A DNA stretch of 62,096 nt, the filler included. It is 17 parts of 17 records of this genome, joined end to end, with 100 filler letters (N's around TTAATTAATTAA, not from the genome) between each part and the next. Parts side by side here need not be neighbours in the genome. Positions count along the whole stretch, not along the records: positions 39,408 to 42,863 come from SRR11831580_4493; 16 more parts are not named here. The stretch is one strand, 5' to 3'. Made by a program: the position numbers and the translations under genes. Of this stretch, positions 40,989 to 41,560 are shown piece after piece; the first letter of the stretch is position 1, and each line of letters opens with the position of its first letter. Below the pieces are notes generated by a model. That model made no database searches. It worked only from the letters and a program-made list of their open reading frames with translations, and was not told where the DNA came from.

Positions 40989-41560
40989 GTGTGCCTTGAA
41001 ATGCACGATCTTTCCGTCGGTGAAAGTCCGCCCCGGCTAACTCTCGCTCCGACTGGAAGGACAAGAAGCGGTCCAGGAGGTAACAAAAGGGCTGAATCTC
41101 TCCCTGAAACGACTTCTTCAGGAAGTCAACGGGTTATGCGGGCCGTAACGTGAGTGAACACTGAGCAGCCATCGAAATGCCGTCGAGGGTGCTGACACGC
41201 CACAATAACGGGGAAGGCCGACGATGACCGGGAAGAGAGTGAGAAAGGCATCGGTCATACCCACCGGGGTTGTGGTGTCAGCATGCATAACAATTGATCG
41301 ATCGTGCAACAAGAGAAGTCCATAACGGTGTCTGTCCGGGTGACGGGCAACAACGCCTCGCGAGGGGGTGAATCGGTTGTTATGGATGGCAGATGGGGTG
41401 TAGTAGTGAAAATACTGAGTAATGTCAGAGGAGCGAAGGCCCCCTCTTGCAGTACCAGTGTAACATGCAGGAAGAGCCCGGCGATTGCCATCAGCCTCAC
41501 AACCCCGCTAGAACCGGTTCAGAACCTACAGAAAACACTACAGGAGAAAGCAAAGTGAAC
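40989..41560 (+). mobile_element. Truncated group II intron (domains I-III plus start of the intron-encoded protein)
   Basis: GTGTG 5' end, GGTGAAAGTCC, candidate EBS1 ACAATAA pairing with the exon end TTGTTGT, DIII-type GTAGTA..GTAAT..GGAGCGAAGG, IEP-like SLTTP..VQNLQKTLQEKAK. Confidence 0.8.

Follow-up and report, generated by a model that had tools for sequence, protein, structure and literature searches.

We describe a 567-nucleotide (nt) fragment of a group II intron in a 62,096-nt stretch of DNA (the window), a pseudomolecule of 17 draft-contig pieces joined at 16 sites (7097-56573) by spacers of 44 N, TTAATTAATTAA and a further 44 N. The fragment is located on the plus strand at 40989-41555, antisense within the remnant of an insertion sequence (IS) of the IS66 family. 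It derives from an intron of approximately 2 kb, with the RNA signature, the 5' end and the exon-binding sequence 1 (EBS1) of such an element, and it is an ordinary genomic fossil. The comparisons reported below fix its identity, boundaries, target site and orientation, the pairing of EBS1 with intron-binding sequence 1 (IBS1), the loss of the 3' parts, the IS3-family end stub at the break and the decay of what remains. We are highly confident of the following explanation as a whole: an intron whose protein lacked an endonuclease entered IS66 antisense to its transposase gene, was later cut by the insertion of an IS3-family element and a deletion, and is now dead.

The 5' part of a group II intron abuts an IS66 transposase remnant

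A preliminary description of this DNA had proposed that the 5' part of a group II intron lies antisense within an IS66 transposase remnant, that IS66 homology stops at the junction, and that the intron-derived segment extends to 41560 and closes with a decayed protein start ending in a stop codon. The features that bear on this proposal are:

40989-41555, plus strand: group II intron 5' fragment, 567 nt, with GUGUG 5' end, domain I (DI, to about 41318), DII, DIII and the 5' part of DIV
41490-41555, plus strand: first 22 codons of the intron-encoded protein, within DIV, ISLTTPLEPVQNLQKTLQEKAK
40757-40988, minus strand: frameshifted 3' remnant of an IS66-family tnpC gene, which terminates at the intron junction, within the Asp codon of the conserved I-D-N-N motif

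The window was scanned with the Rfam covariance models at gathering thresholds, and the sole group II match was to RF02003 (group-II-D1D4-4, clan CL00102). This match covers 41014-41153 on the plus strand and the full model (1-138), with a score of 69.1 bits (E 5e-14), well above the curated gathering score of 49 bits. The 567 nt are related to sequences on plasmids of Enterobacter (about 90% nucleotide identity), Salmonella diarizonae (88.6%), Azotobacter salinestris (76.6%, to a full-length intron) and, on two plasmids, Burkholderia (about 72%). When the window was aligned with the Enterobacter and Azotobacter copies, likeness set in exactly at GTGTGCC at 40989, which is the plus-strand start of the intron and a 5' junction common to all three. 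The 5' flank of each of these copies is the antisense of IS66 ...NNxxERAIRP.

On the IS66 side of the junction, the minus-strand open reading frame (ORF) 40843-41064 reads ...THNNICERAIRP... / ...THNNICERAIRPVVMGRKAWLF..., and its residues 25-52 correspond to positions 255-282 of the 284-position profile PF03050 (DDE_Tnp_IS66; 32.8 bits, cut-off 23.1). In addition, PF13817 (DDE_Tnp_IS66_C) matches the ORF 40757-41086 with 40.3 bits (cut-off 30). The RefSeq record of strain MG1655 annotates the equivalent of 40757-40986 as a frameshifted "transposase domain-containing protein" pseudogene. Neither tnpA, tnpB nor the N-terminal part of tnpC is present downstream of the intron in the window, where yjgX is found instead.

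At the other end, likeness to full-length introns stops after GAAAGCAAAG at 41555, five nucleotides short of the end first proposed, whereas the Enterobacter and Azotobacter copies enter the start of the reverse transcriptase (RT) domain. The 22 codons that precede this point are in frame with, and similar to, the N-termini of the Enterobacter and Azotobacter proteins, which continue with KFHSLWDKV and RFYSLWDKL, respectively. The protein start was thus correctly recognized; its apparent stop codon, TGA at 41556, belongs to an IS3-family repeat stub. The remainder of the proposal agreed with the RF02003 match, with the covariation described below and with the point at which tnpC homology stops. 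A string at 7200 (GTGTGCCTTGC) was considered as a second copy of the intron; neither blastn nor Rfam finds an intron there, and it is a chance string.

Full-length relatives occupy the same IS66 site in the same orientation

The preliminary description had pointed to full-length, RT-bearing copies at the same IS66 site as a means of checking the proposal. Such copies were found on the plasmid of A. salinestris KACC 13899 (NZ_CP045303.1; L003) and, by the dozen, in genome contigs. The Azotobacter intron is complete (4001-5996; 1,996 nt). Its ltrA gene encodes a protein of 428 amino acids (aa) that has RVT_1 and GIIM domains and no endonuclease domain, domains V and VI (DV and DVI) are matched by RF00029 at 5847-5996, and the intron terminates in ...CTCTAC. 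Beyond it, IS66 tnpC resumes on the minus strand, restoring P-I-D|N-N across the insertion, and tnpB is found further on.

A protein-guided scan of one genome per species yielded 80 loci, at protein identities of 47-99%. By record titles they belong to many phyla and groups, including Beta- and Gammaproteobacteria, Planctomycetota, Verrucomicrobiota, Acidobacteriota, Myxococcota and others. The 5' junction could be placed in 49 loci, and at least 32 nt of upstream sequence were available in 46. The antisense translation of the 5' flank starts with NNxxE[N/R/L] in 37 of these 46 and with TNHLER in two more, while the other seven differ. A 3' flank of at least 40 codons was present in 44 loci, ten of which contained in-frame stops and were left out of the profile scan. 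Among the remaining 34, 31 flanks match PF03050, and every one of these matches ends at profile position 252-254. As the stub in the window starts at position 255, the two sides abut at one insertion point, in agreement with the proposed stop of IS66 homology at the junction. Because the 5' and 3' flanks agree across the relatives, the insertion point and the antisense orientation are properties of the lineage. The lineage specializes in the tnpC DNA that encodes the conserved ...I-D-N-N-x-x-E-R/N-x-I-R-P stretch, which it enters in antisense. An intron placed opposite to tnpC can never be spliced from the tnpC mRNA. The relatives gathered here provide tidy data on target-site specificity and EBS1 retargeting within one intron lineage.

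The Azotobacter contig also carries a second, unrelated group II intron on the opposite strand (2119-3868), with RF01999 domains I-IV, its own ltrA and an RF00029 match. Only about 130 nt separate its start from the IS66 stub in which the first intron resides, and a single IS66 wreck thus holds two introns.

The RNA fold is conserved and supported by compensatory changes

Of the 39 loci that retain the entire 5' part, 35 entered the alignment of 40 sequences (A2) in which the fold was examined, together with four plasmid copies and the window. Four loci were left out: L028 (a near-duplicate), L037 (1.2-kb insertion), L086 (uncertain start) and L003 (99% identical to L010). The 5' end reads GTG[TC]G in all 40 sequences. 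RNAalifold predicted 149 base pairs for these relatives, with compensatory changes in 84.

The motifs listed in the preliminary description were all found at the positions given there, including TTGTTGT at 40982, ACAATAA at 41202, GCGA at 41360, GTAGTA at 41400, GTAAT at 41419 and GGAGCGAAGG at 41430. Of its four nested helices, three covary and one is not conserved. Pooled, the four are paired in 84.6% of alignment cells, as compared to 68.3% in shuffles and 27-50% when the partners were slid. In the helix 41133/41291 (GTTATGC at 41133 with GCATAAC at 41285), both sides have changed in five of seven pairs. The helix 41224/41258 (ATGACCG at 41224 with CGGTCAT at 41252) is paired in 98.9% of cells, and all seven of its pairs have changed on both sides. 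The DII stem 41320/41385 (CCATAAC at 41320 with GTTATGG at 41379) is paired in 94.7%, again with changes on both sides in five of seven pairs. The helix 41191/41282, formed by GCTGACAC at 41191 and GTGTCAGC at 41275, was rejected: it is paired in 64.7% of cells, at three of its pairs the bases fail to match in 31, 38 and 36 of the 39 rows, and RNAalifold assigns its bases to other partners. The two domains that follow DI are:

41320-41385, plus strand: domain II stem-loop, its inner hairpin capped by a GCGA (GNRA) tetraloop at 41360-41363
41391-41450, plus strand: domain III, GGGGUGUAGUAGUG...CUGAGUAAUGUCAG...GGAGCGAAGGCCCC, with conserved stems (A2 columns 454-515) and compensatory changes

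The latter is probably DIII, given its position between DII and the ORF-bearing domain. In three loci (L018, L019 and L065), an extra GC-rich hairpin of 21-22 nt occupies A2 columns 41-61, where the domain I loop is short in the other sequences.

EBS1 and IBS1 have changed together

The following two elements pair at the target:

40982-40988, plus strand: IBS1, the last 7 nt of the 5' exon, TTGTTGT, antisense of the Asn-Asn codons
41202-41208, plus strand: EBS1, ACAATAA, in a 9-nt terminal loop of a domain I hairpin (RNAalifold, columns 246-254)

In the window, all seven positions pair, with one G-U. Of 39 sequences, 34 pair in register at all seven positions and five at six (mean 6.87 of 7), and none of 2,000 shuffles of the partners reached the observed total. 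Compensatory changes were also seen. In five loci, the T:A pair at exon position -1 is replaced by G:C, such that the exon ends in G and the first EBS1 position is C. In L048, both partners have changed (exon GCCTT, EBS1 AAGGC), and the 3' flank is an rve-type (integrase-core) gene rather than IS66, a case of natural retargeting. These results uphold the EBS1-IBS1 pair that had been proposed from the window sequence. An ungapped column scan for EBS2-IBS2 against exon positions -8 to -15 gave a best window with 0.67 of cells paired, as compared to about 0.98 for EBS1; no intron segment showed consistent pairing, and none rose above background. The 5' exons of L048 and of L073, both Myxococcota-type contigs, are not IS66 and are similar to each other; L073 lies outside the alignment.

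The break is a composite junction with an IS3-family stub and yjgX

Two features adjoin the 3' end of the fragment:

41556-41576, plus strand: IS3-family terminal inverted repeat stub, TGAACCGCCCCGTGTTTCCTG, source of the apparent stop codon (TGA at 41556)
41568-42753, plus strand: yjgX-type phosphoethanolamine transferase pseudogene, which lacks about its first 104 codons

The IS3 stub begins with TG, and 20 of its 21 positions are identical to one end of an IS3-family element annotated on an E. coli plasmid (L103, 1302-1322, reverse complement); the blastn match spans 24 nt (E 1.2e-5). The IS3-family element by which the Enterobacter copy (L001) is interrupted is bounded by similar ends. No IS3 transposase is left at the stub. 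The 6 nt at the end of the stub, TTCCTG, overlap with the beginning of yjgX homology. The same E. coli plasmid carries an intact, 499-codon homologue of yjgX (L103, 2188-3687), and homology begins at window 41568 and L103 2501, 313 nt into the intact gene. RefSeq places the yjgX pseudogene at the equivalent of 41570-42753, and its sulfatase domain (PF00884) is found at 41857-42300. When 201 genomes of the family were searched at the DNA level for intact yjgX, only two near-identical chromosomes and short IS-like matches were returned. The junction at 41555 is common to four other E. coli-type loci (L002, L004, L008 and L009), which represent three complete E. coli genomes and a K-12-like genome (G001) and include the 97% identity class.

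The N-terminal truncation of yjgX, the loss of the intron 3' part and the loss of most of IS66 thus coincide in a single composite junction (intron, 21-nt IS3 stub, yjgX), for which a single IS3-family insertion and one subsequent deletion can account. According to this explanation, the leuX (KpLE2) island of an ancestral E. coli would have harbored an IS66-family element. A group II intron without an endonuclease would have retrohomed into the tnpC gene of that element in antisense, with the target chosen through pairing of EBS1 with IBS1. An IS3-family element would then have inserted in domain IV, between codons 22 and 23 of the intron protein. A deletion through the 6-nt microhomology TTCCTG may have removed almost all of the IS3-family element, and the same deletion would have taken the remainder of the intron (RT/maturase, DV and DVI), two thirds of IS66 on the upstream side and some 104 codons from the start of yjgX. 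We infer this order of events, and also that priming took place without an endonuclease.

The 3' parts of the intron are missing and the remainder has decayed

The preliminary description had suggested that the intron had lost its RT, DV and DVI, and this was the case. Only the 22 N-terminal codons of the protein remain, and the domain V/VI model RF00029 has no match in the 62-kb window. The K-12-like genome G001 likewise has no RF00029 or GIIM match, and its only RVT_1 match (272518-272901) is far from the locus. When the RT region of the closest relative was searched against 5,426 complete E. coli genomes, none matched at 80% query coverage or more. The 16 weak matches covered at most 6% of the query, all of them at the IS3 end.

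Among the 225 alignment columns that are at least 95% conserved in the other 39 sequences, the window departs from the family at 15, the third highest count in the alignment (median 2). Most of these changes are transitions. Consistently, the RF02003 score is 69 for the window, as compared to 91 for the Enterobacter and Azotobacter copies. With neither catalytic core nor protein, the stub would be incapable of splicing and mobility and appears to have no function, and its sequence is most simply read as being in neutral drift.

Genomic setting and the overlapping reading frame

The contig that contains the stub occupies 39408-42863 of the window, beginning within IS4 and ending close to the end of yjgX. 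That ilvD/ilvE, OxyS and a btuB riboswitch appear beside KpLE2 DNA follows from the joining of separate contigs in the window. In the MG1655 record, the order is insG (IS4), the IS66 pseudogene on the opposite strand, an unannotated stretch, the phosphoethanolamine-transferase pseudogene, IS2 and an integrase, which in other strains is followed by tRNA-Leu. The portion of PMC10652928 that concerns this region gives the gene order yjgX-yjgZ-insG. Both sources place the locus in the K-12 KpLE2 (leuX) island, the setting that had been recognized in the preliminary description.

The 572-nt segment 40989-41560 was matched in 1,545 of the 5,426 complete E. coli genomes, in every case on the chromosome, and with at least 80% query coverage in 1,533. 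Identity was at least 99% in 1,084 of the matches, 95-99% in 452 and 80-90% in nine. No annotated feature lay under 28 of the 30 matches listed, or under 58 of the 60 listed in a sensitive search; the stub is almost entirely unannotated in RefSeq. The map of the leuX island gains with it an unannotated feature that about 28% of complete E. coli genomes share.

A reading frame runs across the 5' junction of the intron:

40757-41086, minus strand: 109-codon ORF at the K-12 "yjgZ" position, which runs antisense from the intron into the IS66 stub

We take this ORF to be yjgZ. Its first 33 codons or so are antisense to the intron (40989-41086), and its only domain match, to IS66_C, covers residues 75-101. 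The 109-aa ORF recurs in public protein sets; a cluster look-up gave no name for the exact window sequence. It appears to be an accidental frame, antisense to the intron RNA and running into the IS66 stub, and the K-12 "hypothetical gene" at the yjgZ position would then be explained as an accident of reading frame. An Hfq-bound RNA of about 300 nt has been reported between yjgZ and insG, in the passage of PMC4152368 that deals with this interval. The interval (window about 40290-40757) corresponds to the leftover 3' end of IS66, beside the intron stub.

Alternative explanations

The stub might instead be functional in some form. Natural split group II introns are broken in domain IV, which is also where this fragment ends, and it could be the 5' half of a trans-splicing intron whose 3' part of DIV, DV and DVI are encoded elsewhere. 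In fact, a 3' piece of the same lineage, of about 172 nt, is present in 391 of the 5,426 E. coli genomes. This unannotated piece includes the stop codon of the protein, DV, DVI and the exact 3' end ...GACTCTAC; in ATCC 11775 (L105, 5001-5172) it lies between qatD, of the Qat anti-phage genes, and a SLATT-domain gene, and its 3' exon is not IS66. However, the two pieces were not found together: G001 has only the 5' piece and the ATCC 11775 chromosome only the 3' piece, and a split intron is therefore unsupported for this genome type. The exons would consist of the antisense IS66 stub and unrelated DNA, the maturase of the lineage occurs in none of the 5,426 genomes, and 15 conserved positions of the stub have changed. 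We give a split intron virtually no credence. It is also conceivable that the segment was co-opted as a structured non-coding RNA, or that the 109-codon ORF is a real gene. The locus is kept at 97-100% identity across E. coli genomes, the ORF is open and recurs in protein sets, and the Hfq-bound RNA reported in PMC4152368 lies in the same neighborhood. But high identity is expected of a recently shared island and needs no selection, the substitutions hit conserved ribozyme positions, and the reported RNA lies beside the intron and not inside it. The ORF, for its part, starts antisense to a ribozyme, its sole domain match is the tail of IS66, and RefSeq calls the IS66 part a frameshifted pseudogene. 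The sequence itself offers nothing in favor of co-option, which seems very unlikely, if somewhat less so than a split intron.

The 3' end could also have been lost during mobility, in an abortive retrohoming or retrotransposition event, and not through an IS insertion and a deletion at a later time. Introns often occur as truncated copies, and one could suspect a preferred break point from the Salmonella copies, whose ends lie within 2 nt of that of the E. coli copy. However, synthesis of the cDNA begins at the 3' end of the intron, and an abortive event costs the intron its 5' end. The present copy shows the opposite: it retains the 5' end with an exact junction, lacks the 3' end and has an IS3-family end repeat directly at the break. 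We regard truncation during mobility as highly improbable, falling between the two previous alternatives.

Several points weigh against the explanation that we prefer, namely insertion of an endonuclease-less intron antisense to tnpC, followed by an IS3-family insertion and a deletion. On the Salmonella plasmid copies (L006, 4568-4571, and L104), which share window 40831-41555 at 84.7% identity, the cut lies 2 nt beyond the E. coli cut and different DNA follows; this offset and these unlike flanks are unexplained by a single IS3 insertion and deletion in the E. coli lineage. Two independent cuts so near to each other would be a strange coincidence. The search for the 3' parts covered the window and G001, whose listed completeness is 64%. 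With EBS2-IBS2 not located, the account of target recognition is partial. Finally, the absence of function was judged from the sequence.

Comparison with known introns

The Azotobacter and Enterobacter copies (e.g., pJBIWA005_1) share with the window the 5' end, the RF02003 signature, the IS66 insertion point, the antisense orientation and the EBS1 loop. Unlike the window copy, which stops at codon 22 of the protein, the Azotobacter copy is complete, with the 428-aa ltrA product, DV/DVI and IS66 on both sides, while the Enterobacter copies keep part of an RT gene that is interrupted by an IS3-family insertion.

RmInt1 of Sinorhizobium meliloti is an IS-targeting intron with an endonuclease-less protein. 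The relatives of the window intron similarly encode RT and maturase domains without an endonuclease and home into an insertion sequence. An intron on S. meliloti pSymA, a candidate RmInt1 copy, encodes a protein of 33.9% identity and has an RNA of RF02005 rather than RF02003. We presume that IS679 is an IS66-family element. It is the target of E.c.I3, an intron of E. coli and Shigella, according to the main text of Leclercq and Cordaux (2012; PMC3522654). E.c.I3 would accordingly resemble the window lineage as an Enterobacterales group II intron that homes into an element of that presumed family. By blastn and tblastn of the window lineage it is a different lineage, although E.c.I3 itself was not located and its site and orientation were not compared. 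A sensitive blastn search of the 5,426 E. coli genomes with the stub returned the copy in the leuX island and a few partial matches with identities of 80% or more, and none in the 60-80% band. The lineage protein reached at least 60% identity in nine plasmid records only, and all other records counted were below 60%. Judging from these searches, no other intron in E. coli genomes or enterobacterial plasmids is a close relative of the window lineage.

Literature searches for group II introns with IS66 in E. coli, with KpLE2 and with leuX, and for yjgZ, which were carried mostly by titles and abstracts, returned no description of the window fragment, and group-II-D1D4-4 was unmentioned in the literature searched. 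Leclercq and Cordaux (2012) surveyed the Enterobacteriales for intron fragments, and E.c.I4 is the only MG1655 fragment named in their main text; their Table S2, with 135 copies, may list the fragment described here. We consider the stub to matter little beyond annotation, as a real but ordinary relic of a known kind of element. A far broader reading, which we think unlikely though less so than the alternatives weighed above, is that of a widespread family of endonuclease-less introns that insert near-exclusively at one 15-20-nt stretch of IS66, always in antisense, and kill each IS copy. If true and undescribed, such obligate antisense "IS66-killing" would provide a clean natural example of a selfish element that is policed by another, and E. 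coli would carry two separate fossils of the lineage, the 5' stub described here and, within a defence island, the 3' stub.

The E.c.I4 fragment, listed for MG1655, W3110, DH10B and BW2952 (PMC3522654, Table 3), resembles the stub as a dead group II piece in the IS debris of a K-12 island. It differs in its locus and, probably, in being an RT fragment, whereas the stub consists of RNA domains I-IV without RT. At gathering thresholds, Rfam found no intron RNA around the RVT_1 match of G001 at 272518-272901 (L005), and this match is probably the E.c.I4 fragment (ykfC).

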